From: a virus
IMG/VR virus record: IMGVR_UViG_3300045988_037140
Span: 11,143-75,142 of that record
Reading direction: 5' to 3' (one strand)
Length of the DNA stretch: 64,000 nucleotides
Positions 1,335 to 64,000 of this stretch are shown here, piece by piece; positions within the stretch are counted from its first letter, which is position 1, and the number at the start of each line of letters is the position of its first letter. The notes beneath the pieces were generated by a model. It was not told where the DNA came from, ran no database searches, and saw only the letters and a list, made by a program, of their open reading frames with translations. Position numbers and translations under genes: made by a program.

Positions 1335-1425
1335 TGCCCCGTGGTGTAATGGTTAGCACGGCGGTCTCTAAAACCGTATCCCTCTGAAGGAGTAAGTCTG
1401 GGTTCGAACCCCAGCGGGGCTGCCA
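1335..1425 (+). tRNA. amber-suppressor tRNA (anticodon CUA, reads UAG), type II-like with Gln-like determinants
   Basis: Anticodon stem gcggt/accgt with a 7-nt loop ctCTAaa (U33, A37). T-arm ctggg-ttcgaac-cccag; acceptor tgccccg/cggggct with a U1-U72 mismatch; discriminator G73; CCA. The variable arm is 20 nt (ctct-gaa-ggag hairpin); D-arm gtgt-aatggtta-gcac. Confidence 0.7.
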
Positions 1426-4116: not shown

Positions 4117-4462
4117 GGGGGTATAAAGGTTTCGACGGGGCATTGAGAAGTTAGAACACACGGGTAGGCGACCTCCTTACGGCGCAACAAACAATTAACT
4201 GACAACAATTATTTTGATTCTCACATGGCAGCTTGAGCTTTTGCTCGCTGACCATTAACTGTATACCTCTGGTTTCTTTGTTTTCCTTCTAAAAATAAAG
4301 TGGTGGATGCGTTGTACTTATAACCGGTACGGCCCTATAGTTTAGTTAGTTTGTTCTTGACTTGTGGCTCTATTCAAAAGCTATAAATAAGGACTATCGT
4401 GTAAGAATGTTCTGATTAAGTAGATGTTTCGGACACGGGTTCGACTCCCGTTACCTCCACCA
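4117..4462 (+). ncRNA. ssrA: tmRNA (SsrA), phage-encoded
   Basis: 5' end gggggtataaaggtttcgacgggg and 3' end tttcggacacgggttcgactcccgttacctccacca match the canonical tmRNA ends (GGGG...GGUUUCGACGGGG ... UUCGGACGCGGGUUCAACUCCCG...CUCCACCA). The acceptor gggggta/tacctcc pairs. Candidate tag ORF: ...DNNYFDSHMAA followed by TGA. Confidence 0.75.
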
Positions 4463-4781: not shown

Positions 4782-5642
4782 ATGAAGATTTATAATCCAA
4801 TTAACTATTCCTATATCACTGTTGTAGAAATTCCAAAGACAGAGATTTCAAAGTTCGATATGGCGCTATGTCAACAGCCTCGTTAGACTTTGAAAGCCTA
4901 CTATGATAGTTGCGCTGTTAAGCCTTCTATCGTTTCCAATGGTGGTTTCTTCAGCATGACTGATGGTTCAACAGCCTTTAACTATACCGATGAAGGTATA
5001 ATCATTAGTTCTAATTCTCTTTACAAAGAAGGATTTGGAACTGTCAATGGAGAGTTAAAGTACGGTGTAATTGGTCAAGAGAAGTTTGAGGACTTCGTAA
5101 GTGGCTATCCAGTCTTAATTAAGGCGGGCGCCGCAGTTCCTATTACTATTGCTTCCGAGATTAACTACAAGGCTAGAAGAACTATTCTAGCTTATAATAA
5201 AGAAAATATCTTTATTGTAGCTATTGAATCTCCGGGCATGAACTTCTCACAAATGCAATCTTTCTTGCGGACTCTCAAGGTTGACTACGCTATTAACCTT
5301 GATGGAGGCGGAAGTACCAAGATATTGCATGATGGCAAGTGTATCACAAAGGCGCTTGCTAATCGTCCTGTTGATAATATAATGGCTGTTTATCTAAAGC
5401 CAAAAGTTATTTACAGAGTATAGCTTGGTGCATTTAGCAAGAAAGCTAATGCAGATGCATTTTTAGCTAAAATCAAGGCTCTTCCTGATACTATCAATGC
5501 AGGATATAAGAATGCTTATGTTCGCAAGGTTGGTAGTTATTGGAAGGTTCAAATTGGTGCGTTCTCTGTGAAAGCTAACGCAACACGAGTTGTAAATGAT
5601 CTAAAGAGTAAGGGCTATAATGCCTTCATTACGACAACTTGA
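4782..5642 (+). CDS. phosphodiester-glycosidase-like (NAGPA/DUF2233-type, ...INLDGGGS...) protein with a C-terminal SPOR domain; two in-frame TAG codons
   Basis: ATG at 4782 with RBS gaggaaggtga. In-frame TAGs at 4884 and 5421 join the ORF-track pieces 4692-4886 and 4890-5423 to a C-terminal extension ending at TGA 5640-5642. The extension contains two SPOR-type repeats, RV*LGAFS and KVQIGAFS. Confidence 0.55.
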
Positions 5643-5685: not shown

Positions 5686-5791
5686 AAGACGCTTGCCGCA
5701 ACCACTACTATTGTAATAGTCAAAAGGTTAAGACATTTCTCTACAAAAGAAACAATTTGGGTTCGATTCCCAATTACACAAAAGGCGTCTT
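5686..5791 (+). ncRNA. AAGAC-clamped tRNA-like ncRNA module B
   Basis: Clamp aagacgc/gcgtctt. Interior: hairpin tttct-ctacaaa-agaaa (anticodon-arm-like), T-arm ttggg-ttcgatt-cccaa, and a 5-bp A/U acceptor-like pairing tgtaa/ttaca. No CCA. Confidence 0.35.
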
Positions 5792-20054: not shown

Positions 20055-20357
20055 ATGGGAAAAATTACTCGTCATAGCAAAGAGCGCATTGTTCAGAGGA
20101 CTGAGGGATGTGAGAGTTTCGCAGAAGCTAAGAAGTTAGCTAAGCAAGCTAAGCGATCTGGTGCAACTATAAATCAGTTTCAGAAGTTCCCTAAGTTCTT
20201 CTCGTATCTTCAGAACAAGAGAAACCAGACTAATACCTGTTCTATTAGAGTTTATCGAGGCAACATTTATATCTGGCGTGGCAAAGATACATTGATTACC
20301 GCGCATCCTATCCCCGAAAGATATATTAAAGAAATGGAGGCTATTGGCGATGACTGA
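20055..20357 (+). CDS. hypothetical protein
   Basis: 100 aa. Confidence 0.35.
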   Translation: MGKITRHSKERIVQRTEGCESFAEAKKLAKQAKRSGATINQFQKFPKFFSYLQNKRNQTNTCSIRVYRGNIYIWRGKDTLITAHPIPERYIKEMEAIGDD

Positions 20358-21147
20358 TGTTATGAGTAGAGTCCATGACCATCTCGATGAAAGTTTGCAG
20401 AGGTTTGACGAATCAAGAATCGTCGGTATCTTCTTGCAAGGCTCTCAGAACTATGGTCTTGAAACTCCTAAGAGCGATGTTGATACGAAGCTGATTGTTA
20501 CTCCTACTTTTGATGAAGTGGTTCTTAACAAGAAGCCTATCAGCACCACTCATGTAAGAGCAAACAACGAGCATACCGATCTGAAGGATATTCGATTGAT
20601 GCTCGCCACCTTCCGCAAACAGAATCTCAACTTCATTGAAATTCTCTTTACCCCTTATGCTTGGGTAAACCCTCTTTTTGAAAGTGAATGGGGTCGTCTG
20701 ACTGCGGCGCGCGAGCAGATTGCTCACTACTCTCCATATGGCGCAGTTAAGACCATGAAGGGTATCGCTATGGAGAAATATCATGCTATGGAGCATGAAT
20801 ATCCTAGCAAATTGGAAGTACTAGCCGAGTATGGCTACGATCCAAAACAGCTCCATCATCTCCTGCGGGTTCAGGAGTATATCCATAGATACATCAGCGG
20901 TGAATCCTATGAAGCGTGCCTGCATCCTAAGCGTCCTGAGTTTCTTGTAGCTGTTAAACAGGGGTATTTTAACCTTGAGCAGGCCCGCACTTCCGCGGAT
21001 GCGGCTATTGCTGACGTAATTGAAACTGCGGACGCCTTCTGTGAAAAAGTTGGTAAGACTTTCGATACCGCAGTTGATGAACTGCTTGATGATGTGCAGT
21101 ATAATATCGTAAAAAGTGCATTGAAAGGAGAGATTCTAAGTGATTAA
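20344..21147 (+). CDS. pol-beta-superfamily nucleotidyltransferase (GS-x12-DVD motif)
   Basis: GIFLQGSQNYGLETPKSDVDTKLIVTP is the classic minimal NTase signature. A helical C-terminal domain follows. Confidence 0.5.
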   Translation: MAMTDVMSRVHDHLDESLQRFDESRIVGIFLQGSQNYGLETPKSDVDTKLIVTPTFDEVVLNKKPISTTHVRANNEHTDLKDIRLMLATFRKQNLNFIEILFTPYAWVNPLFESEWGRLTAAREQIAHYSPYGAVKTMKGIAMEKYHAMEHEYPSKLEVLAEYGYDPKQLHHLLRVQEYIHRYISGESYEACLHPKRPEFLVAVKQGYFNLEQARTSADAAIADVIETADAFCEKVGKTFDTAVDELLDDVQYNIVKSALKGEILSD

Positions 21148-21934
21148 GAACTGGCTCGTTACAGGAGATACTCATGGTCAAGTCCTTGAGAGACTTAGTC
21201 ACATTGGGTACCCTCCTGATGAAACTGCGTTGATTATCCTTGGTGATATGGGTCTTAATTTCTATCTAAATAAGACCGACCAGAAGAACAAGAGGAATGT
21301 CAATGCAACCGGATTCCGCATTTATGCAGTTCGTGGCAACCATGAAGAGCGTCCAGAAAACCTTTTCATGGAGCAGATGTATGACGAAGATATTGATGGC
21401 GGAGTATATTATGAGCCAGAGTTTCCGAATATCAGATACCTCTTTGATGGAGAGAGTTATAACATTCATGGCTACTCTGTCCTTGTTATCGGCGGAGCGT
21501 ATTCCGTAGATAAGTGGTATCGACTTAGAGATCGTCCAGAAGATACAGATAGTTGGACTGGCTGGTTCAAGGATGAACAGCTAACCAAAAAGGAAATGGA
21601 TGAAATTGGCGCATGGGTTGAGGGTAAGCGTTATGATTTTGTCCTAACCCATACTTGTCCCATTTCTTGGGAGCCAAGAGATTTGTTTCTCTCTGGTCTT
21701 GACCAATCCAAAGTAGATAAAAGTATGGAACTTTGGCTTGAGGATATCAAGAGTAAAGTTGATTGGGAGGTATGGCTCTGCGGCCACTACCATGACGATC
21801 GGTTAATCCGGCCCGGCGCAGAAATGTACTTCCACGACATTGAATCTCTTGATACAATTTGGGAGCGTTGGCAAGATCCTGAGAGCCTTGACTGGTGGTT
21901 GAAGAAGGATCCAAACTACTATATGGGTAGATAA
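21140..21934 (+). CDS. metallophosphoesterase (calcineurin-like: GDTHG, GDMG, GNHE)
   Basis: Motifs I-III of the MPE fold. Confidence 0.65.
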   Translation: MIKNWLVTGDTHGQVLERLSHIGYPPDETALIILGDMGLNFYLNKTDQKNKRNVNATGFRIYAVRGNHEERPENLFMEQMYDEDIDGGVYYEPEFPNIRYLFDGESYNIHGYSVLVIGGAYSVDKWYRLRDRPEDTDSWTGWFKDEQLTKKEMDEIGAWVEGKRYDFVLTHTCPISWEPRDLFLSGLDQSKVDKSMELWLEDIKSKVDWEVWLCGHYHDDRLIRPGAEMYFHDIESLDTIWERWQDPESLDWWLKKDPNYYMGR

Positions 21935-21942
21935 AAAAATAA

Positions 21943-21975
21943 AGGGTCGAAGTATTTAATACTTCGACCCTTTTA
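21943..21975. terminator. bidirectional terminator
   Basis: aaagggtcgaagtat-ttaa-atacttcgaccctttt; lies between convergent + and - genes. Confidence 0.6.
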
Positions 21976-21976
21976 A

Positions 21977-22234
21977 TTAAAAGTCATGCCACTCAAGTTT
22001 CTGCGGACTTCCAGTTCCGCCGATCTTTTGATAGCCATTTGCTGTGGTATATTGCAAGATGGCATCTTCTACAAAGTAGATCTTGCCTTCTTCACCAACT
22101 TCAGGAAGCTCAGAACGCTGTGTTACTTCAATGCTTCCACCATTTTTAATCTGTTCCTTAACCCATTCTTTGAGTTTTGTATCATAGTGAGATAAAAGGT
22201 TAAGGTCAATAAGGTTTTCTAATGCGACTGCCAT
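21977..22234 (-). CDS. hypothetical protein (minus-strand island)
   Basis: 85 aa; RBS aaggag on the minus strand; one of only two convincing minus-strand genes. Confidence 0.45.
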   Translation of the reverse strand: MAVALENLIDLNLLSHYDTKLKEWVKEQIKNGGSIEVTQRSELPEVGEEGKIYFVEDAILQYTTANGYQKIGGTGSPQKLEWHDF

Positions 22235-22247
22235 TAGGAATCACTCC

Positions 22248-22517
22248 TTAACCAAATAGTTTATCAATGTCTGCAATGTCGGCTAAGCTGCCTTCAACGA
22301 CAACTGTCCCACCGCCTCCGCCGCCACTTGACTTTTGTTTAATCCATTGACCCTGGTTGTTCAATCTATAAGTGCTAGAAGTTGCGACAACCTCGCAAGT
22401 GCTGCCAGGGGTAAAGTGGGTAGGAAGGGTGGCAATTTCGTCTTCGGTATCAACTAGTAGACGAACTAGATAGGGAGTGATTTTCTCCCCACTCATCATC
22501 TGAGAATACATAGACAA
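22248..22517 (-). CDS. hypothetical protein with a Gly6 run (minus-strand island)
   Basis: 89 aa; RBS aaagggg. Confidence 0.4.
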   Translation of the reverse strand: MSMYSQMMSGEKITPYLVRLLVDTEDEIATLPTHFTPGSTCEVVATSSTYRLNNQGQWIKQKSSGGGGGGTVVVEGSLADIADIDKLFG

Positions 22518-22607
22518 TCTGCCCCTTTCATTATTTTCTCTATTGTTATCTAAAAAATGATAATGAGTGTATATCAGCTTTTGGCCAAAATAAATACCTA
22601 TTTGAAA

Positions 22608-22656
22608 AATGTTATAAAATATATTATAATATATATAGAAAGTTAAGGAAGAAAGA
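22608..22656 (+). promoter_or_regulatory. phage consensus promoter + leader
   Basis: tgttataaaatatattataatatatatagaaagttaaggaag. Confidence 0.45.
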
Positions 22657-22657
22657 A

Positions 22658-23062
22658 GTGATAACCATTCGTATCTGGCATCAAAAACTTATTCCCTATC
22701 TTGACCGTCAGCGTCTCTTAGGTCAGCATCGAGAATGTGCGGCTCTGAGAGGAAAAGGCTGGGGCAAGAAACACGCAACTGTAGACTATGCTTTTACACA
22801 TGACCCTGCCTTGCTTGTCGCTTATCATTATCTGATTATGGACGAGATGGAGAAGCGTGGTTACCATCCAGATAAGATTTGGAAGAATCCGAACTGGCGA
22901 GGAAGTACATTGGGCGAAGATACATGGATTTCTGATTCTAAGTATGAAGAGATTTATGAATCTGCCAAGCAGGGTAATATGATTTATCCTGAACATGATG
23001 ATGCTTATTTGCAGGAGTGTATCAATATCCTGCACGAAAAAGGTATCGACATTACGATGTAA
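22658..23062 (+). CDS. pyrimidine-dimer DNA glycosylase (T4 endonuclease V / DenV-like)
   Basis: GTG start. IRIWHQKLIPYLDRQRLLGQHRECAAL...AYHYLIMDEMEKRGY parallels T4 DenV [20 protein letters not shown]. Confidence 0.5.
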   Translation: MITIRIWHQKLIPYLDRQRLLGQHRECAALRGKGWGKKHATVDYAFTHDPALLVAYHYLIMDEMEKRGYHPDKIWKNPNWRGSTLGEDTWISDSKYEEIYESAKQGNMIYPEHDDAYLQECINILHEKGIDITM

Positions 23063-23081
23063 CAAGAGAGGAGATAGCTAT

Positions 23082-23252
23082 ATGATGCCCTATGTTTGTG
23101 ATGGAACTATCGTAAGAGTGAGAGACGGCCGCACCGGTAAAGTCATCTGCGTTGATAGAAACACCAAGATTGCAGTAGTCTATACTGGTAAGGCATCTAT
23201 CTCTACAAAGATTGAAAATCTTGAGGTCATTTCCTACAAGGAGGTTCAGTAA
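23082..23252 (+). CDS. hypothetical small protein
   Basis: RBS gaggag; 57 aa. Confidence 0.35.
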   Translation: MMPYVCDGTIVRVRDGRTGKVICVDRNTKIAVVYTGKASISTKIENLEVISYKEVQ

Positions 23253-23253
23253 A

Positions 23254-23547
23254 ATGCCCGGAAGAGTAAGAGTTCATCGACCCTCTCCAGAAAAAGAGGG
23301 AGAGTATAAGATGCGTATTCTTAGCATCTTAAATGAGTCTGAGGAAGCTATGACGATTGATGAAATCAAGAGTCAGGATATGATTCTCCAGCCATTAACA
23401 TCTCAAAAGATGGCAAGACTTATCGGCAATCTGATTGAAATGGGACTTGTGCGGAAGGGCAAGTCTAAGAGCCTCGGACGCATGGTTTATAAGGCTGTAG
23501 CAGTCATGATTAGTCAAGGCTATGACGTGAATGAAGAGGAGGAGTAA
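23254..23547 (+). CDS. winged-helix-like small protein
   Basis: RBS aaggagg; 97 aa. Confidence 0.35.
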   Translation: MPGRVRVHRPSPEKEGEYKMRILSILNESEEAMTIDEIKSQDMILQPLTSQKMARLIGNLIEMGLVRKGKSKSLGRMVYKAVAVMISQGYDVNEEEE

Positions 23548-23550
23548 GAT

Positions 23551-34983: not shown

Positions 34984-36390
34984 TTGGCGGATAATGCTCA
35001 AGTTATTTGGGATTATCTCAAATCAAAAGGATTAAGTAACTGCGGCGCCGCAGGTCTAATGGGGAATCTATTCGCGGAAAGTGGACTTATTCCAACTAAC
35101 TTATAGAACTCATATGAGAGCAAGTTAGGAATGAACGATGCCTCGTATACTGCGGCTGTTGATAATGGCTCCTATACCAATTTCACGCATGATTCTGCTG
35201 GATATGGTTTAGCTCAATGGACATATTGGAGCCGCAAGCAAGGTCTGTTTTAGCTGTGCAAAAGTCGAGGAAAGTCTATTGGTGACTTGAACACTCAACT
35301 AGATTTTTTATATCAGGAACTAACTACAAGTTATTCCTAGCTATTAAAAATCTTGAAGACTACCTCATCTGTTGAAGAAGCATCTAATTTAGTGGTCACT
35401 CAATTTGAAAGACCGGTAGATCAAAGCTTTGATGCACTAAAACAACGTGCTTTATATAGTCAACGTTACTTCAATACTTATTCAACGCAAAAGGAGGAAA
35501 TGGCTAAGATGAAATATTCAAACGCCAATCAACCATTGGTTTGCATGATGACCAATAGTACCTGTTATAAGCAAACCCGTAAAATGGATATTAAAGGTGT
35601 ACTCTGGCATAGTACAGGCGCCAATAATAAAACTATTAAACGTTATGTCCAACCATCTGAGAATGATAAAAATTATCAATCTCTGATTGCTAAAATTGGT
35701 AAAAATACCAGTAGAACCGATTGGAATCATAGCTCGTAGCAAGCAGGCGTAAACGCTTGGATTGGTGCTCTTGCAGATGGAAGCGTAGCCGCGGTACAAA
35801 CGTTGCCTTGGAATTATAGACCTTGGGGCTGCGGCTCAGGCCCTAAAGGTAGTTGTAATACTGGATGGATTCAATTTGAAATTTGCGAAGACAATCTAAG
35901 TGACCCCAACTACTTCGCTAAAGTCTACAAAGAGGCTTGCGAATTGACCGCCTACTTATGTAAGACATATAATATCAATCCAAATGGTTCTGTAAATGTA
36001 AATGGCGTAATAGTCCCAACTATTCTTTGCCATCAGGATAGTTATCAGCTTGGTCTTGGCAGTAATCATGCCGATGTATACCACTGGTTCAAGAAATATG
36101 GCAAAGATATGGCAACTGTCCGCAAAGATGTTGCTGCTTTAATGCAGTCTAAAGTTATCGAGGAGGATGATGAAGACATGACTCAAGAGAAATTCAACGA
36201 AATGATGAATGTATATTTAAGCCAGCTTGCTGCACAACCAGTTACTTGGGAACAAGATGCAATGACTTGGGCACAAGCTAATGGCTTAATCAATGGCAAT
36301 GAAAAGGGCCAATTAATGCCAAAGCGTTTTATGACTCGTGGTGAATTTGCAGCCGTTCTAAAACGTTATGCTGAAAAGAGTGGTCAATAA
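34984..36390 (+). CDS. modular endolysin: phage-lysozyme2-type N-terminal domain (GAAGLMGNLFAESG) + central domain + C-terminal SLH cell-wall-binding domain; four in-frame TAG codons
   Basis: TTG start 8 nt after ggagg. In-frame TAGs at 35104, 35251, 35338 and 35737 join the ORF-track pieces 35353-35739 and 35803-36390 in one frame. C-terminal WAQANGLINGNEKGQLMPKRFMTRGEFAAVLKRY is an S-layer-homology motif. Confidence 0.65.
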
Positions 36391-36716
36391 TGACTCGTCA
36401 AACAAGAGGGAAAAGAAGACACAACTAGAAGAGAGAATTTTCTAAACAACTTATTTGCGATATTCGCTCTTTATTGTGGATTGTAACTATCTCTGGTATT
36501 GCTCTTGCTTTCTATTGCGTACATCTCGGTTATTTAGGCACTCTTCCATGGATTAGTGCATTAGTAGGATTGCCATGGTCTGCGCATGGTATTGTTTGCT
36601 CTTTTTACTTAAACATGAGTAAATCCGATCACCGCAAGGGTGGGATTACTTATGATTTAGCTATGTGTGAGAAACAATAGCAGCAAGTAGTCGAGGATGA
36701 AGCAACCATTTAATAT
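36390..36716 (+). CDS. holin (two TM helices) with a possible N-terminal KR-rich extension read through TAG (antiholin-like dual start?)
   Basis: ORF-track core 36474-36680 (two TM). ATG 36390 overlaps the lysin TAA and is in the same frame through TAG 36426. The TAG at 36678 extends the C-terminus by QQVVEDEATI to TAA 36714-36716. Confidence 0.5.
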
Positions 36717-43258: not shown

Positions 43259-43459
43259 ATGACCCGTAAACAGATGAAGCGGTTCGCAGATGAAATCTAT
43301 AAATGCGAACTTATTCACCAAGATGAAAATTCCTCAAAAGAGGAAAAAGCCCACGCAGAAGACCGAATTATGCAGTTAACTAACTAGATTATGGCTCTTC
43401 CCGATGGGATAAATGCTTTACTGGAAATTGATGCTTTAATTGCATCGAGAATTAAATAA
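43259..43459 (+). CDS. hypothetical small protein with one in-frame TAG (or two short ORFs)
   Basis: ATG 43259; TAG 43385 in frame; continues to TAA 43457-43459. Confidence 0.3.
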
Positions 43460-43796: not shown

Positions 43797-44714
43797 ATGA
43801 TTTATTATATATTATCAGGCTTGGTTATTCTTGCGTTAATAGGATATGTTTTATATCTCCGCAATAATCGGCTTTAGGTAGTATTGATAAATAAAGAAAG
43901 ACAAGAAGAAAATAAGCGTATTGAACAAGATATTGCATTGAAATAGAGAGAATTAGCAAAAGTAAAAGAAGATATTGTATCACATAATGAAATTGTCAAT
44001 TCTTTAAACGATACTGCGAATAAATTGCGGGAAAGCGCTGAATAGCGAGCGAAAGAGAGCGCTAAGGCTCAATTTGAAAAGAAAAGTAAAGAGCTTGATG
44101 AAACATATCAAGCTAAAGAAAAATATCATTTAGCAGAACTTCAGCAGATAACTAATCAAATTTCACATTAGCAAGATAAACTCCATGAATTAGAAGCTAA
44201 ATAGTTATCTTATATCTAGGCTCAATAGCGCCAAGAAGCGATTGCCGCAGATTAGGACTATTATCGTCTTGCTATTGATGAATTTAGTTTGAATGATATT
44301 ACTCTATTGCGTGATTTGCAAATTCACTTTGTGAAAAAGGAAATCATTGATAAAGTAATATGGGAGACCTATTATCGTCCTGCGTATGATATTCTTATGA
44401 CCCATCTATTTGCCACTAATAAAGGTAAAGTATGCGGTATCTATAAGATTACCGATCTAACAACTGGTTAGGCTTATATTGGTTAGTCTGTTGATATTAA
44501 AGAGCGTTTTAGACAGCACATTAAAACCTCTTTAGCATACGGACCTGCGACTAATAAGTTATATTAGGCGATGCAAAAATCTGGTCAATATAATTTTATA
44601 TTTGAGGTTTTGGAAGAAGTGCCTAGAGATTAGTTAAATGAACGAGAGACTTATTGGATTGAGTTCTATAAGACTAAAGAGCTAGGTATGAATGGAACTC
44701 GTGGAGGTTCATAA
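43797..44714 (+). CDS. GIY-YIG endonuclease domain fused to an N-terminal TM + coiled-coil (i-spanin-like) region; about 13 in-frame TAG codons
   Basis: ATG 43797. N-terminus MIYYILSGLVILALIGYVLYL (TM), then a Q/E/K-rich coiled coil. C-terminus GIYKITDLTTG*AYIG*SVDIKERFRQH...WIEFYKT = GIY-YIG. TAGs fall at conserved-motif positions. Ends at TAA 44712-44714. The ORF track shows only the fragment 44289-44471. Confidence 0.55.
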
Positions 44715-51008: not shown

Positions 51009-51182
51009 ATGAAGAACTCTAAGGCTATTGATTATCAGATTACTAAGAAGCAGTTTGATGGTATTCTTTCTACTCGTAAGGATGATGAAGCAAAGAAGAA
51101 CCCTTATCAGTATGTAATGGGGATTATCAATGAGAGTTATGGTCTGCGTGGTACGGTAACTCATCTCGTTATTATTGAGTAA
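51009..51182 (+). CDS. hypothetical small protein
   Basis: RBS aaggagaagataat; 57 aa; not in the ORF track. Confidence 0.3.
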   Translation: MKNSKAIDYQITKKQFDGILSTRKDDEAKKNPYQYVMGIINESYGLRGTVTHLVIIE

Positions 51183-52285
51183 TGTCTCGTTATTATGATA
51201 AAGACGAGCTAAAGGAGAAACTAGAACTAGAGTAGATTTATGACTTGGTAGAAGCTTGGGGAGGCGAGCCTGAGTACACAGATGGAGGGCTTATCTCCCA
51301 AACCATTTGTCACAATTTACCTGGCGAAGGTTCCCGCAAGCTTTATTATTACACTAATACTCGATTGTTTAGATGCTATACTGGCTGTATTGATCCTACT
51401 TTTGATATCTTTGACCTATGTATCAAGGTAATGAAAAATCAAAAGCAACTGAAATGGGAAATGTACGATGCTATGGATTATATAGCATCGTACTTTGGTT
51501 TTGATGGTATCGAAAAACAAGAGGAACAATCGGAGTTAAAAGACTGGGACATATTTAAGAAACACAATCTGCGGCTTCCAGAAAAGAAACCTATGGTTCA
51601 ACTAAAAGAATATGATCCAGTTATTCTTACTCGCTTTGTTTATCCTCGAATTTCTCGTTGGGAGCGAGAAGGAATTAGTGATGAAGTAAGTAAGAAAAAT
51701 CTTATTGGCTACTATCCTGGCGGCGAGCAAATCACAATTCCGCATTTTGATATTGATAATCGTTTGATTGGTATTAGAGGTCGTTCTTTAGCGGCAGATG
51801 AAGCTGAAAGATATGGTAAATATAGACCTCTATTGATTGGTAAGCAATTATACAATCATCCATTAAGTATGAATCTGTATAACTTAAACAATAGCAAAGA
51901 TAATATCGCTAAAATCCACGCGGCGATTATTTTTGAGAGCGAAAAGTCTTGTTTGATGTATCAATCATACTATGGGCATGAGAATGATATTTCTGTCGCT
52001 ATTTGCGGAAGTAGCTTATCGAGCTATCAGGTTGATTTGTTGAAACAAGTTGGCGCGAGAGAAATTGTGATTGCTCTTGATAGGCAGTTCCAAGAAATTA
52101 GCGATGATGAGTTTAAGCGATTAAAAGCTAAACTTATTCATTTTTATAATAAATATAATAACTCTATAAGAGTAACAGCTATATTCGATAAAGCTATGAT
52201 TTCACCTTATAAAGCTAGCCCTATTGACCAAGGGCCGCAAGTTTTTGAGAAGTTATTAGCCGAACGAATTATTCCAAAAGGTTAA
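51182..52285 (+). CDS. DNA primase (CHC2 zinc finger + Toprim; DnaG/T7-primase-like)
   Basis: CHNLPGEGSRKLYYY...FRCYTGC zinc-binding domain and Toprim EIVIALDRQ. ATG 51182 is in frame through TAG 51233 and adds ...ELE*IYDLVEAWGG, which aligns with the DnaG N-terminus. The alternative start is TTG 51245. Confidence 0.6.
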
Positions 52286-52296
52286 GGAGGTAAATC

Positions 52297-54006
52297 ATGG
52301 ATTATTAGCTGATTAAGCCTATTCATGACGGTTACTCCGCTATTGAACAGGTGTTGACAAATAGAGGAATTAAATTTGAAGATATTGACCATTATCTTAA
52401 TGTATCAGAATCAGATAATTTATCGCCCCTTTTACTCAAAAATATTGAGAGTGCAGCTAAGATGATTTTTAATCAACTTAGTAAAGATAGTTTTCATATT
52501 CATGTGCAAGTGGATAGCGACTGCGATGGATACACTTCAGCAGCTTTGTTATTGAATTATATCCATGCTGTATTCCCATCTGCTATATCGCATATTTCAT
52601 ATAGTTTCCACGATGGCAAGATTCATGGTATTAACCCTGAGTTGATTCCACCAGAGACAACATTAGTCATTGCTCCAGATTCAAGCTCTAATGACTATGA
52701 TATTCACAAAGCTCTTCATGATAAGGGTATTGAAGTTCTTGTATTGGATCACCACTAGGCTGAGAGAATTTCAGAATATGCTTGTATTGTGAATAATCAA
52801 CTTTGTGATTATCCTACTAAATCGCTTTCCGGTGTTGGTGTAGTTTATAAGCTATGTCAGTTTATTGATTCTCTGCTTCCCGCAGATCAACAGAAAGCGG
52901 ATCAATTCTTGGATATAGTAGCTATTGGCTTAGTTGGAGATATGATGGATTTAAGAGATTTTGAAACACACTATCTAGTTCAGACTGGATTAAATCAAAT
53001 TCAAAATCCATTTATCAAAGGTATGGCAGAAAAGAATCATTACCAGTTAGGCGATCACCCTACTCCTATCGGGGTGGCTTTCTATATTGTACCACTTATT
53101 AACTCAATTACAAGAGTTGGAACGATGACTGAAAAGACTTTATTATTTGAGTCGATGCTTAACTGGAAAGCCTTTGATTTAGTTCCTTCAACTAAGAGAG
53201 GATGCTCTGGTCAGCAAGAGACAAGATTGGAACAAAGTTTGCGGACTTGCACTAATGTCAAGAATCGGCAAACGAGAAATCAGGATGCCGCGGTTGAACA
53301 GGTTAAAGCAATCATCGAGGATAATAAACTTCTCGATCATAAGATTTTGTTAATTAAATTAGAACACCCTTCTTTTGATAGAGGTATCACTGGTTTAATT
53401 GCTAACAAACTTATGGCAGAATACCAGCGTCCTGTGGCACTGTTAGTGGAAGTAGAAGAAGATGGGAAAATCGCTTGGAGCGGTTCGGCACGTGGATATG
53501 AGAAATCTAAACTAAATGATTTCAGAGGCTTTTGTCGAGATAGCGGTTTAGTTTATCTTGCTGAAGGTCATCCTAATGCATTTGGTTTCGGTATCTTAGA
53601 CGAGAATTTTGATGCCTTTCTCGAATATGCCGATAATGCACTCAAGGATATAGAATTTTCACCAAGTTATAAAGTGGATTTTATTCATTCTGTAAACAAC
53701 TTTAATCCTAAAGAAATTCTTGAACTAGGTAACATGAAAAATCTTTGGGGTCAAAATGTTGATGAACCACTTATCGCGGTGGAAAATGTTGCAGTAACAA
53801 AAGACATGATTACACTCATGGCAAGAGATAGGAACCCCACGTTGAAGATCCAATTACCCAACGGAGTTACTTGCATCAAGTTTAAATCAAGCGAAGAGGA
53901 GCTGGATAGTTTGTTCAGCGAAAACGGTTGCGTGACTATTAATCTTGTGGGTAAGGCCGAAGTAAATAAATACTTCAATACTGTAACACCACAACTTATT
54001 ATTTAG
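52297..54006 (+). CDS. DHH-family phosphoesterase (RecJ-like exonuclease / DHH-DHHA1) with two in-frame TAG codons
   Basis: Strong RBS aaggaggtaaatc + ATG 52297. TAGs at 52306 and 52756 (right after the DHH motif VLVLDHH*AER). ORF-track pieces 52351-52758 and 52789-54006 share one frame. DSDCDGYTSAA is DHH motif I. Confidence 0.6.
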
Positions 54007-54082
54007 AATTATGAGATTATAAATCGTCAGGAATATTATTTTTAATGATTGCGCGACCTCTTACTAAAGGAGGAACAATCAA

Positions 54083-54847
54083 ATGAGTCGTTTTATTAAA
54101 GTTATCACAAGTTTAATCATTATATTGTCTTTATGCGGATGTAGCTATGGCCTAGCGGTCACTACTCAAGCCTATTCCGTGCCGTATAACGAAACTGTTA
54201 GTTATACTCTTGATGATATGGATACATTGGTTGAGCTTATTGCGGAACAAATCTCGAATATGAACGCCGCACATCAAATGGCTGAAGCTGCTAGATAGCT
54301 AGGCTATAGTGAAGACCATGACGTCATTGTATTAGCAAAACAAGAACACGCTGATGCAAATGCTTTGAGAATGAAATATCAAAGCATATATGATCAACTC
54401 ATGGAACATTGGCATCAAAAGGAAGAAGAGTACCCAACAGCTACTTATATATGGACCTACTTCAAAGATCTGGGCTACAGTAACCAAGTTTGCGCTGGCA
54501 TTCTTGGTAATATAATGGCTGAAACTGGAGGTAACACATTAGACATTCAAGCCACGATTTCTGGTAACGGATATTATGGTATATGTCAATGGAATAAAGC
54601 CTACTCAAATGTATGGGGAGCCTCGTTAGAAGAGCAATGCGACTATCTGCGAGATACTATTGAGTACGAGTTCGATACATTCGGTTATGTTTATAAGAGA
54701 CATTTTGATTACAATAGTTTCTTGAATTTAACCGACATTAAGAGCGCTGCTCTAGCATTTGCTAAATGCTATGAGAGATGCGGTTCTGGGAGCTATTATA
54801 CGCGACAGCAAAATGCTATTGCTGCATATAATTACTTCATAAGTTAA
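54083..54847 (+). CDS. lipoprotein with a phage-lysozyme2-type peptidoglycan-hydrolase domain; one in-frame TAG
   Basis: Signal peptide + lipobox LSLCGC. TAG 54296 joins ORF-track pieces 54083-54298 and 54365-54847 in one frame. VCAGILGNIMAETGGN is paralogous to the endolysin N-terminal domain. Confidence 0.55.
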
Positions 54848-60860: not shown

Positions 60861-63101
60861 TTGCTACAAGTGAAAAAGAGAAATGGTATCCTTGTACCAT
60901 TTGATAAGCAAAGAATCGTTAATGCCATCAATAAGGCTTTTATCGAAGTTGATGGTACTTTATATGAAGAAGATACAGCAAATGATATTGCTGATGAAAT
61001 TAAGTATAGTGTAAAAACCGCAGATAAAATTATCTCTGTTGAGGAAATTCAAGACATGGTTGAAGACTTCCTCATGCGGTCTGAGCGCAAGGACGTGGCT
61101 AAAACCTACATTCGTTATCGCTATAAGCGAGAAGTTGCGCGCTCCGGTAGAGACGATTTTATTAAGGCTTTCTCTGAGAAGATTAACGGTACAGCCATTG
61201 AGAATTAGAACGCTAATGTCGATGAAATGTCATTCGGCGGTCGAGTTGGCGCAGGTTCTGACTTGCAAATGAAGAGATACGCTCTAGATTACTGCGTCTC
61301 TGATATGGCTCGCCGCAATCACGAGAACAATGAAATTTATATCCATGATCTATCTGCATATGCAGTTGGTATGCACAACTGTCTTTCTATTCCTTTTGAT
61401 GATCTACTTGCAAAAGGCTTCAATACTAGACAGACTGACGTGCGGCCCGCAGGTTCTGTGAATACTGCTTTCCAATTAGTTGCTGTTATTTTCCAGCTTC
61501 AATCCTTACAGCAGTTTGGTGGAGTAAGTGCTACTCATCTTGACTGGACTATGGTTCCTTATGTAAGAAAAAGTTTTAGAAAACACTATATTGAAGGTTT
61601 AAAGTATATTGAGAATATCTCCGATAAAGAGCTTTTTGACCATATCCCAGATACTGCTGGAATTGAAGATAATGAATATATGATTTATGATAAAGCATAT
61701 CAATATGCTCTTGATATGACTGTTAAAGAAGTACATCAAGCTGTAGAAGGTATGTATCATAATCTTAATACTCTCCAGTCTCGCTCTGGTAATCAATTAC
61801 CTTTTACTTCTATCAACTATGGTACTTGTACGTTGCCAGAAGGTAGAATGGTCACGAAAGCATTGCTTGATGTTTCTATTGAGGGACTTGGTAGATTACA
61901 TAAGACTTCTATCTTCCCATGTGGTATCTTCCAGTGCATGAAAGGCGTCAATCAAAAGCCCGGTGATCCAAACTATGATCTGTTTAGACTGGCTCTAAGA
62001 TCTACTGCAACTAGACTTTATCCCAACTATGCTAATGTTGATTGGTCTGGTAATGCGGGATATGACATCAATGACCCCAAGACCTATTTCTCTACTATGG
62101 GCTGCCGCACCGCAAATGGCTGGGATATCAACGGTATGGGTCAAACAAAAGATGGTCGTGGTAATATTTGCCCCGTAACTATTATCATGCCTACTTTAGC
62201 TATGGAGTGTAAGATTAACTTTGATGCAGATGTAAAAGGCCATTATTCTTTTAATGATAGACAAATTTTAATTGACAGATTCCTTTATAAACTTGACCAG
62301 AAGATCCATGAAGCAAAAGATATGCTGATTGAACGCTTTGATTATATCTGCTCTCAACCCGCGGCATCCGCTAAATTCATGTATGAGAACGGCTTAATGG
62401 CAGGATATGATGGTAAGACTACTCGTAGTGCTCTTAGACATGGTACTCTTGCTGTTGGTCAGATCGGTCTAGCTGAGACTCTGCAAATCCTTATCGGTCA
62501 AGACCATACTACTCCAGAAGGTATGGAACTAGCGAAACGAATTGAACAGCTCTTCAAGGATAGATGTGCAGAGTTTAAAGAACAGTATAAGTTAAACTTT
62601 GGTGTATATTATACACCTGCTGAGAATCTTTGCTATACCGCTATGACAAAATTCAAAGAGAAGTATGGAGAGATTCCTAATGTGAGTGACAGAGATTACT
62701 TTACTAACTCTATTCATGTTCCAGTCTGGAAAGAAATGTCTCCGTTCGATAAGATTGATATTGAAAGCCAGTTAACTGGGTATTCTTCTGCTGGTTGCAT
62801 CACTTATGTCGAACTTGATAGCGGTGTCAAAAATAACATTGATGCTTTGGAAACTCTAGTGCATTATGCTATGGAACATGACATTCCTTACTTTGCTATC
62901 AATGTTCCTAATGATACTTGTCTTGAATGTGGTTTCATGGACGAATTTAATGATCACTGCCCTGTTTGTGGAAGCCATCATATCCAGCAGCTTAGACGAG
63001 TGACTGGTTATCTAACTGGTAACTATACGACTGCATTTAATGCAGGTAAAATTGCAGAAACAAATGATAGAGTAAAACACGCTGGTCGATTGGAGGAATG
63101 A
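60861..63101 (+). CDS. nrdD: anaerobic ribonucleoside-triphosphate reductase NrdD (ATP-cone + catalytic + glycyl-radical domain); one in-frame TAG
   Basis: ORF-track pieces 60861-61208 (ATP cone, VKKRNGILVPFDKQRIVNAINKA) and 61227-63101 (catalytic domain, C-terminal CLECG...CPVCG zinc ribbon, RVTGYLTG glycyl radical) share one frame through TAG 61206-61208. Confidence 0.7.
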
Positions 63102-63104
63102 CCT

Positions 63105-63599
63105 ATTCGTTACGCAGGAATTATTTATAATGACTTTTCTTCAGCGCCGGGTGTGTGCCTATCATTCTTTACTCAGGGGTGCCCCTTCCATTGTGAGGGG
63201 TGCCACAACCCTGAGACTTGGGATTTTGATGGCGGAAGAGAGTTTACACAAGATACTTTGCAATCAATCATTACTGGATTGCAAGCTAATGGGATACATA
63301 GAAATCTATGTGTCATGGGTGGAGAACCTTTATGCCAGAATAACTCATTCCTTACTCGCTTGATTGTAACAACAGTAAAGAAAGAGCTACCGGATACTAA
63401 AATCTACATTTGGACAGGTAATAAATATGAAGAACTTCTTCATTCTTCTGATACCAATATGCGGGAAATCCTTAAGACTGCGGATGTCTTGATTGATGGC
63501 CCTTATATTCAAGCTGAACGAGATATTACCTTGCCTATGCGCGGTAGCCGCAATCAGCGCATTATTAACTTACGCGAGGTTTACCATGAAAAAGCGTGA
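63105..63599 (+). CDS. nrdG: anaerobic RNR activating enzyme NrdG (radical SAM CPFHCEGC); probable AUU start
   Basis: Homology to NrdG (IIYNDFSSAPG vs T4 RIYPCDFVNGPG) extends upstream of the ORF-track start 63153 into a frame with no ATG/GTG/TTG. ATT 63105 lies 8 nt after GGAGG. Confidence 0.55.
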   Translation: MRYAGIIYNDFSSAPGVCLSFFTQGCPFHCEGCHNPETWDFDGGREFTQDTLQSIITGLQANGIHRNLCVMGGEPLCQNNSFLTRLIVTTVKKELPDTKIYIWTGNKYEELLHSSDTNMREILKTADVLIDGPYIQAERDITLPMRGSRNQRIINLREVYHEKA

Positions 63600-64000
63600 A
63601 TTGATTAAAAAGGGAATTACTCTTATGAATGATAAGATTTAGGCTGGAGTAGAATCTAGTCTAAATCGAATTGTTCAACAAGTTATTGCATATAGCAATG
63701 CTTTAGAAGAATCAAAGACTCTATTAGATAAAACTCAACAATTATTCTACGATTCTCTCACTTAGACTTATAGCATTACTTCAAATGAATTAAAATAGAT
63801 TTATTCTAGAACGAAAGATTTTGAAGTTAGCGATATATTATCTCTCACCTACAATAAAGACAATAAAACTTTAAATGAAAGAATCGCTGACCACTGGTAT
63901 AAAGCAGCATCATATGCAGATAAACAAGCAATGCGGGTATATTTAATTGACAAATATGATAGGTTGCTAAGAAATGAAACCTAGATTATTAAAAATACAG
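63586..64000 (+). CDS. hypothetical protein (partial, runs off the window) with at least four in-frame TAG codons
   Basis: ATG 63586 overlaps the nrdG end. TAGs at 63640 and three more downstream; no TAA or TGA before the window end. Confidence 0.4.

Follow-up and report, generated by a model that had tools for sequence, protein, structure and literature searches.

Bacteriophages that read the amber codon TAG as glutamine are known among the crAss-like, Lak, Garnet and Amethyst phages and among some Firmicutes phages of the Jade, Sapphire and Agate groups (bioRxiv 10.1101/2021.08.26.457843; PMC9523058). Borges et al. regarded the suppressor tRNAs of such phages as possibly non-canonical, left the mechanism of their charging open, and noted that phages rarely encode a synthetase (10.1101/2021.08.26.457843); neither they nor Peters et al. 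(PMC9523058) described the structure of the suppressor tRNA. The present work concerns a stretch of 64,000 nucleotides (nt) of the virus record IMGVR_UViG_3300045988_037140, referred to here as the window, and in particular a tRNA gene with the anticodon CUA (tRNA-CUA) at positions 1335 to 1425. An earlier note on the window had proposed that TAG is reassigned by means of this phage-encoded tRNA. This observation is real and is confirmed: within the window TAG is a rare Gln codon and never a terminator.

The phage thus joins the TAG-to-Gln (code 15) phages already known. As in the members already described, TAG aligns to Gln, the tRNA(CUA) lies in a tRNA array, and the host probably uses the standard code; strongly recoded lysis genes and variably recoded replication genes may be a further resemblance. 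The genome is about 147 kb, within the range of the Agate phages (154 +/- 27 kb), and the host is probably a gut or rumen member of the Bacillota. Unlike the described code-15 phages, it has no close GenBank relative, and no RF2 or other release factor gene and no synthetase gene were found in the window, which also lacks a structural module and a terminase.

In-Frame TAG Codons

When TAG is treated as sense, 67 genes comprising 17,077 codons are called, all on the + strand. This strand shows positive GC skew along its entire length and carries an array of 32 tRNAs and one tmRNA within its first 15 kb (ARAGORN). Thirty-eight in-frame TAG codons are spread over 15 of the 67 genes, which have no TAA or TGA inside (Table 1). 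The 66 complete genes end with TAA (53) or TGA (13), as the earlier note had found for the open reading frames that it checked, and none with TAG; the terminal-most TAGs, at 54004 and 33376, face sense codons in relatives. TAG makes up 18% of the stop-type trinucleotides on the + strand and 38 of 38 in-frame stop-type codons, which rules out chance (0.18^38, ~7e-29). It is nevertheless a rare codon, used 38 times against 569 for CAA and CAG together.

The protein domains run through these codons. One Pfam match each extends across TAGs for Phage_lysozyme2 and Amidase_2 (endolysin), GIY-YIG (across four of them), DHH and SPOR, and alignments to RecJ structures in the PDB are continuous across TAG 52756. 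The TAG of NrdD lies between the ATP-cone and NRDD matches. The contiguous domain architectures previously read from the joined pieces hold, and relatives, like the Pfam domains, continue past the TAG positions instead of ending there. Stop-to-stop open-frame statistics across stop sets were uninformative, since open reading frames become longer under every relaxed code; domain continuity and comparison with homologs were used instead.

The gene list of the earlier note, which gave at least 14 genes read through TAG, required small changes. All ten coordinates that it gave for individual TAGs are right (4884, 5421, 10469, 35104, 35251, 35338, 35737, 52306, 52756, and 61206), and the two TAGs that it placed in 10002-10217 were located at 10068 and 10137. 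On the other hand, the GIY-YIG gene has 12 TAGs instead of about 13, and the holin-like gene ends at 36713, not 36716. The DHH/RecJ gene runs beyond 54006 to a TAA at 54045: its TAG at 54004 is the third one read as sense, and alignments with relatives continue through that codon. A fifteenth gene (27237-27599), absent from that list, was called from its open frame and is the weakest of the set.

In terms of density, the GIY-YIG gene comes first with 39 TAGs per 1000 codons, followed by 10002-10217 (28), the gene at 63496-64000+ (24), the holin-like gene (19), and the endolysin gene (8.5). Lysis-type genes are thus TAG-rich together with the GIY-YIG gene, and no TAG occurs in the large genes of the replication machinery (Pol III alpha, GyrA, GyrB, ligase, DnaB, and SF1 helicase). 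TAG had been described as occurring alike in early, middle and lysis genes. This description requires qualification in view of these TAG-free genes and of the primase-like gene, where all 13 near-identical strains carry CAG in place of the TAG. The GIY-YIG protein is atypical for a homing endonuclease, since it combines a transmembrane helix and a Gln-rich coiled coil with a C-terminal nuclease domain. Its gene occupies the same position in three other loci (L001, L003, and L005; L numbers designate loci throughout), and the L001 copy has more TAGs.

The Amino Acid Inserted at TAG

The identity of the inserted residue was addressed with a comparison set of four syntenic loci (45-97% protein identity) and 80 further loci around the helicase gene. 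In the four syntenic loci, a TAG in one genome is mostly opposite CAA or CAG in the other. Of the 29 TAG sites of the window with informative orthologous residues, 17 have Gln as the most frequent one, against a background of 3.5%, and in the reverse direction the window has CAA or CAG at 42 of the 79 positions opposite a TAG of a relative. Of the 13 TAG polymorphisms between orthologs with an identity of 95% or more, 12 pair TAG with CAG or CAA. Summed over the TAG sites, BLOSUM62 gives 75 for Q, 38 for E, 31 for K, and 0.6 for S.

Individual sites agree with this result. For instance, the TAG of NrdD (61206) faces Gln in 36 of 47 diverged relatives (34 CAA and 2 CAG), that of the endolysin at 35104 faces CAA or CAG, and the TAG at 63763, in the gene cut by the window end, faces CAA. 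In near-identical strains, position 63982 is TAG in four and CAG in three. At 5421, where the earlier note had aligned the TAG of a SPOR repeat with a CAA codon, the codon is CAA in seven distant relatives and CAG in one near-identical strain. Similarly, the motif YIG*S of the GIY-YIG protein, previously compared with YIGQS, is aligned to YIGQS in a relative, and XLSYIXAQXRQ of the same protein to QLAYIQAQQRQ. The homologs in the PDB have E, E and A at the NrdD TAG and A, E or T at the RecJ TAG, a weak result that is compatible with Gln. No informative relatives were found for the gene at 10002-10217.

It is important to note that Q at these positions in database proteins is circular and was not used as evidence, because such proteins were called with code 15: their loci fail to give the stored protein under table 11. 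Codons were therefore compared in DNA. More than 100 endolysins at least 92% identical are present in a large protein collection, several of them on contigs of 140-149 kb, while a megablast search with 24 kb found no close DNA relative among GenBank phages, the sole match being 51 bp of thyA. Overall, the codon-level comparison supports TAG being read as Gln, which the earlier note had preferred, and excludes Ser, Leu and Tyr as the main reading.

The Suppressor tRNA and Its Variable Arm

Both ARAGORN and the Rfam covariance model call a tRNA at 1335-1425, with the U1-U72 mismatch, G73, U35 and 20-nt variable region previously described. The identical gene is found on eight IMG/VR contigs (82-148 kb). 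Relative to the table of identity elements in PMC9976931, the Gln features present are G73, a weak 1-72 pair (U.U, unpaired instead of U-A), G2-C71, G10, U35, and A37. The determinant G36 is absent from the anticodon, which has A36, and its equivalent occurs only in the loop of the variable arm (G1386). The acceptor and D-arm half, UGCCCCGUGGUGUAAUGGUUAGCAC, is close to that of phage tRNA-Gln(UUG), for example UGCCACUUGGUGUAAUGGUCAGCAC in L126. These features show, at the level of sequence, a tRNA-CUA built on a tRNA-Gln body. Whole-tRNA identity to the other tRNAs of the window gave no answer on the isotype. The label "Pyl" assigned by ARAGORN reflects the CUA anticodon only: the compact fold of tRNA-Pyl, with its 3-nt variable loop, short D loop and 6-bp anticodon stem, is not matched by the standard D arm with an 8-nt loop, the 5-bp anticodon stem and the 20-nt variable region, and neither PylRS nor pylBCD was found among the window proteins scanned, which were part of the open reading frames. 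A repair of U1.U72 to A1-U72 by the Thg1-like protein of the window was also considered and dropped, because A1.C72 members of the family would become G1-C72, which would destroy Gln identity.

The variable region contains a hairpin with a 3-bp stem and a 7-nt loop, followed by a single-stranded 3′ tail of 5-6 nt. The loop, CUCUGAA, differs by one base from the anticodon loop of the same tRNA (CUCUAAA) and by one base from that of the tRNA-Gln(CUG) of this phage (CUCUGAC). Three scans of IMG/VR, with the content of the arm unconstrained, and one scan of GTDB genomes yielded 38 distinct tRNA-CUA of at least 82 nt. When 21 distinct arms are aligned on their centre, all 21 have Watson-Crick pairs (CG, GC, AU, and UA) at the two inner positions of the helix, and 18 have a Watson-Crick or G-U pair at the third. 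The stems vary widely (UCC/GGA, UGC/GCA, GCC/GGC, ACGG/CCGU, and CCA/UGG) around a loop consensus [C/U]-U-[C/U]-U-G-A-N; other members have CUUUGAA or UUUUGAU, with the second Gln anticodon, UUG, at the centre. A stem of 5 bp, the full size of an anticodon arm, occurs in L165 and L177.

In 18 distinct segments, 94% of the cells of the helix are paired and 12 are changed on both sides. The helix scores 0.71 for covariation, compared with 0.14 in shuffles (none of 500 reaches this value) and 0.05-0.18 in slid controls, in alignments anchored on the conserved loop triplet, which fixes the loop columns and leaves the stem registers unbiased. Fixed-length anchored segments were used because a MAFFT alignment of the full tRNAs placed the variable arms in two registers. 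The register with a GAA triloop, preferred by minimum free energy (MFE), shows no changes on both sides, is no better than shuffles and is broken in L124, L147, L156, L161, L165, and L146. A Shine-Dalgarno-like role of the GAAGGAG in the arm was ruled out, as other members are without it. By comparison, the 140 tRNAs for Ser, Leu and Tyr that lie in the same loci mostly have arm loops of 3-5 nt, and one has a 7-nt loop. The pattern of substitutions shows, as a predicted structure, a 3-bp hairpin with a loop in the form of the tRNA-Gln (CUG) anticodon loop and not a class II arm.

Glutamine, Tryptophan and Glycine Loops in Suppressor tRNAs

The core of the Gln loop is found in the arm of 28 of the 38 long tRNA-CUA, in none of 28 long tRNA-UCA and in 3 of 167 other long tRNAs (p = 1.6e-24). 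The opal suppressors, 28 distinct tRNA-UCA, came from a scan of IMG/VR for CTTCAAA, 24-36 nt, and GGTTCGAATCC, with the content of the arm unspecified. Their arms contain the core of the Trp loop, UCCAA, in 27 of 28 cases, against 0 of 38 long CUA and 1 of 167 other long tRNAs (p = 5e-33). In 22 distinct Trp-type segments (Gly-type omitted), a 5-bp helix closes N-U-CCA-A-A. Of its cells 88% are paired and 39 differ on both sides, and its covariation score is 0.97, a value that none of 500 shuffles (0.21) attains. In this set the second arm is followed by a 4-5-nt variable loop, which resembles a complete tandem anticodon arm.

The acceptor ends differ according to the loop carried. In tRNA-CUA with a YUG loop, the 1-72 pair is never G-C (U.U in 8, A.C in 9, U-A in 8, others in 3) and G73 is found in 27 of 28. 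Of the 24 tRNA-UCA with a CCA loop, 22 have A-U at 1-72 and all have G73, as in the bacterial Trp set. The Gly set, that is, tRNA-UCA with an NCC loop, has G-C and U73. It comprises four long tRNA-UCA with a different body (L204, L207, L239, and L282), whose acceptor is of the Gly type (G1-C72, C2-G71, C3-G70, and U73) and whose loop is UAUCCAA or CAACCAG; these are presumably UGA-to-Gly (code 25) suppressors with a copy of the Gly anticodon. Finally, the eight long tRNA-CUA without the mimic all have G-C at 1-72, with G73 in five and A73 in three, and their D arms look like those of class II (Ser/Leu type) bodies, as judged by eye.

Six amber suppressors with G1-C72 and class II-looking D arms (L149, L150, L154, L180, L182, and L186) are candidates for Ser or Leu insertion at UAG in other phages or metagenome-assembled genomes; that of L150 seems similar to E. 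coli tRNA-Ser with a CUA anticodon. Five loci (L007, L009, L018, L025, and L027) have two different tRNA(CUA) genes adjoining. In L013, a 96-nt tRNA-Ile(UAU) at 7718-7813 has in its long arm CGAUAA, like the GAU anticodon loop of tRNA-Ile, and may represent the same second-arm design on a sense codon. The hairpin-bearing tRNA-CUA also occurs in bins of metagenome-assembled genomes assigned to Clostridia, Bacillota, Acutalibacteraceae, and Erysipelotrichaceae. In these groups Gln-tRNA is often made via glutamyl-tRNA synthetase (GluRS) and GatCAB.

Proposed Function of the Second Arm and Alternatives

The joint best explanation, to which we give a probability of about 0.8, is that of a TAG-to-Gln phage with a Gln-bodied, two-armed suppressor whose second arm aids charging with Gln. 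The glutaminyl-tRNA synthetase (GlnRS) reads U35 and G36 of the anticodon, the tryptophanyl enzyme C34, C35 and A36, and the glycyl enzyme C35 and C36 (PMC9976931). According to this explanation, the CUA arm would decode UAG on the ribosome in competition with host release factor 1, and the second arm would give GlnRS, or a non-discriminating GluRS plus GatCAB, the U35/G36-type determinants that are lost with A36. The suppressor would thereby be charged with Gln efficiently and specifically, and the extra arm would be tolerated by the ribosome like a class II variable arm. The long single-stranded linkers, together with the tandem-arm layout of the Trp set, suggest that either arm could stack on the D stem, or that the hairpin could swing to the anticodon-binding domain. 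As proposed in the literature, TAG-rich genes (endolysin, holin-like, and GIY-YIG nuclease) might be made only after the suppressor is active, with delayed expression as a result. Whether phage suppressors follow a general modular design, with a suppressor anticodon for the ribosome and a cognate YUG, CCA or NCC arm for the synthetase, we consider about evenly balanced.

Several observations weigh against a role of the arm in charging. Many phage tRNA-CUA, some with the same D arm, are of the ordinary 72-75 nt and have no hairpin, and 28 of 29 phage tRNA-CUA assayed in E. coli extract insert Gln (PMC12636597). Short phage tRNA-CUA are charged by E. coli GlnRS (PMC12636597), and the hairpin is therefore not generally required; it may matter for some hosts only. 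The E. coli Gln determinants G3-C70 and U38 are absent (C3-G70 and A38). The helix of the window spans just 3 bp, and MFE folding favours another register. It is also not evident how the anticodon-binding domain reaches the loop of the variable arm with the acceptor in the active site, and the loop could be conserved for another partner.

Such a partner might be a host anticodon nuclease, with the hairpin as decoy or shield, a modification enzyme that uses it as a handle, or a host synthetase sequestered by it. With its RNA ligase, Thg1-like protein, RlaP, kinase and phosphoesterases, the large tRNA-repair-like module of the window points to selection by defences directed at tRNA and so lends this idea some weight. 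Nevertheless, we regard it as unlikely, since it leaves unexplained that the loop triplet always fits the acceptor-stem identity of the same molecule and that the eight long G1-C72 tRNA-CUA, apparently class II, lack the hairpin.

The hairpin might instead be a functionless leftover of a duplicated tRNA-Gln anticodon arm, one copy of which mutated to CUA. A duplication origin is plausible in view of the tandem-arm look of the Trp set and of the single base that separates the two loops of the tRNA-CUA. A neutral relic, however, would be expected to drift or vanish, and here the loop has stayed constant while the adjoining stem changed on both strands many times, is kept in unlike bodies (UGGGGAG, AGCGGGU, and UGCCCCG) and belongs to a design common to three amino-acid identities. 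Persistence without function is thus rather improbable.

The earlier note had reserved judgment on Ser, Leu or Tyr on account of the 20-nt, class II-like variable region, and the synthetases for Ser and Leu do not need the anticodon (PMC9976931). In favour of such a residue, a few TAG sites face the Ser codons TCG or TCT (for example 33618 and 35143, where the TAG is in the relative, and 36426), the TAG of one relative faces F or Y (35071), and amber suppressors with apparently class II bodies are present on further phage contigs (L149, L150, and L154). These points are outweighed by the substitution sums, in which Leu and Tyr fall outside the top eight residues and Ser is negligible beside Gln, by the near-identical polymorphisms with CAG or CAA, and by the shape of the arm, whose 7-nt loop on a 3-bp stem departs from the class II tRNAs of the same loci. 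Moreover, the determinants C72, C11-G24 and R4-Y69 for Ser and A73 for Leu and Tyr are absent (PMC9976931 table), the tRNA having U72, U11-A24, C4-G69, and G73. A Ser, Leu or Tyr identity is therefore very improbable. That the TAGs are real stops in split or decaying genes, with the tRNA(CUA) idle or giving low-level readthrough, is hardly credible: some crAss-like phages do have suppressor tRNAs with no visible recoding (PMC12386605), but here real stops would truncate NrdD after 115 codons and RecJ after 3, interrupt domains that run in frame without TAA or TGA, and sit at positions that are kept or swapped with Gln codons in relatives at 45-99% identity, with no complete gene ending in TAG.

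The recoding adds one more metagenome-abundant lineage to the TAG-to-Gln phages, and an annotation of the window under the standard code would miss about 3,400 codons. If true, a built-in copy of the cognate anticodon loop would be a concrete answer to the open question of charging. The same design is found for Gln, Trp and Gly. Phages are known to make these three reassignments, and each of the synthetases concerned recognizes the anticodon. The design would then amount to a natural rule for changing the codon of a tRNA with the amino acid unchanged, of possible use in genetic-code expansion and therapeutic suppressor tRNAs.

Features of the Window

Table 1. The tRNA-CUA and the TAG-containing genes of the window.
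Feature	Position	Strand	Remarks
tRNA-CUA, 91 nt	1335-1425	+	ARAGORN; Rfam RF00005, 54.5 bits (gathering 29)
Acceptor stem	1335-1341/1415-1421	+	U1.U72; G73 at 1422; encoded CCA 1423-1425
D arm	1344-1359	+	Cloverleaf in MFE fold
Anticodon arm	1361-1377	+	Loop CUCUAAA; anticodon CUA 1368-1370
Variable region, 20 nt	1378-1397	+	AUCCCUCUGAAGGAGUAAGU; between anticodon and T arms
Variable-arm hairpin	1379-1381/1389-1391	+	Stem UCC/GGA; loop 1382-1388 CUCUGAA; CUG 1384-1386
T arm	1398-1414	+	Cloverleaf in MFE fold
NAGPA + SPOR protein	4782-5642	+	TAG 4884, 5421; Pfam SPOR match across 5421
Hypothetical gene	10002-10217	+	TAG 10068, 10137; open frame with TAG as sense
Hypothetical gene	10223-10735	+	TAG 10469
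Hypothetical gene	27237-27599	+	TAG 27285; open frame with TAG as sense
Metallophosphoesterase	30511-31197	+	TAG 31069; Pfam Metallophos; TAG kept in L005, L006
Hypothetical gene	32932-33396	+	TAG 32983, 33376; CAG in L005, L006 at 33376
Endolysin (Phage_lysozyme2 + Amidase_2 + SLH)	34984-36390	+	TAG 35104, 35251, 35338, 35737; two Pfam domains span TAGs
Small transmembrane, holin-like protein	36390-36713	+	TAG 36426, 36678
Hypothetical gene	43259-43459	+	TAG 43385; CAG in relatives
N-terminal transmembrane helix + coiled coil + C-terminal GIY-YIG	43797-44714	+	12 TAGs in 305 codons
Primase-like gene (label of the earlier note; no Pfam hit)	51182-52285	+	TAG 51233
DHH/DHHA1/RecJ_OB exonuclease	52297-54045	+	TAG 52306, 52756, 54004; Pfam
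Lipoprotein with Phage_lysozyme2	54083-54847	+	TAG 54296; near-identical strains: TAG 11, CAG 2
NrdD (ATP-cone + NRDD + glycyl radical)	60861-63101	+	TAG 61206; Pfam
Hypothetical gene, cut by window end	63496-64000	+	TAG 63640, 63763, 63796, 63982

Other elements, all on the + strand, are of separate interest. The tmRNA (4117-4462; Rfam, 100 bits) lies between tRNA-Arg(UCU) and tRNA-Lys(CUU) and encodes the tag DNNYFDSHMAA. A tRNA-like gene at 5709-5782 (Rfam, 50.5 bits) has the anticodon ACA, with A34, and no encoded CCA. The tRNA at 8450-8523 (Rfam, 42.5 bits) has an 8-nt anticodon loop, GUUAAAAG, for which ARAGORN gives the four-base anticodon "taaa"; it has a short variable loop and G73, hence not a Leu-type body, and could be a quadruplet or frameshift decoder. 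The tRNA-Cys(GCA) at 14679-14765 is 87 nt long, with a long arm (CCC/GCAA/GGG) unusual for Cys. This arm was considered as a further mimic and rejected: its loop is a GCAA tetraloop, not 7 nt, and a similar arm in L018 has the loop UUCAAU. The RNA/tRNA-repair-like module occupies 20350-30496, with RlaP (20350-21147), an RNA ligase (23551-24819), a Thg1-like 3′-5′ polymerase (27964-28794), a kinase of the AAA_33/KTI12 type (29984-30496), together with four metallophosphoesterases. The module may protect the phage from host defences that cleave tRNA.

Comparison With Known Suppressors and Anticodon Mimics

The suppressor of the window has close counterparts in E. coli supE and in the tRNA-Trp CUA mischarged by GlnRS, which likewise combine CUA, U35, G73 and a weak 1-72 pair and insert Gln at UAG (PMC9976931). 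Suppressors of the supE type are charged below wild type because G36 is lost. They have no second anticodon-like loop, while the tRNA of the window adds a YUG loop in its variable region. A long variable arm is compatible with GlnRS, given that a long-armed amber tRNA-Ser becomes Gln-accepting after changes at 1-72 and 3-70 (PMC9976931).

Class II tRNAs (Ser, Leu, and bacterial Tyr), as well as the nev-tRNAs (PMC3333845) and allo-tRNAs (PMC7609411), whose anticodons are unexpected, also have an extra arm that is tolerated by the ribosome and used in recognition by synthetases. The class II arm, however, is recognized by its shape and orientation and has a long stem that starts at the core and a loop of 3-5 nt of free sequence, whereas that of the window has a short stem, single-stranded linkers and a 7-nt loop conserved as a replica of the cognate anticodon loop. 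No account of a variable arm with such a copy was found in the full-text literature, from which subscription journals are mostly absent, so that an earlier description is possible; the architecture of this suppressor tRNA seems to be undescribed.

Copies of anticodon arms are nonetheless familiar in mRNA. The operator of E. coli thrS is an anticodon-arm mimic that is bound by the synthetase. In the mRNA of yeast histidyl-tRNA synthetase, a hairpin copy is read by the anticodon-binding domain of the enzyme (PMC6542539). Such mRNA mimics regulate translation, whereas the mimic of the window lies inside the decoding tRNA itself and would serve its aminoacylation.

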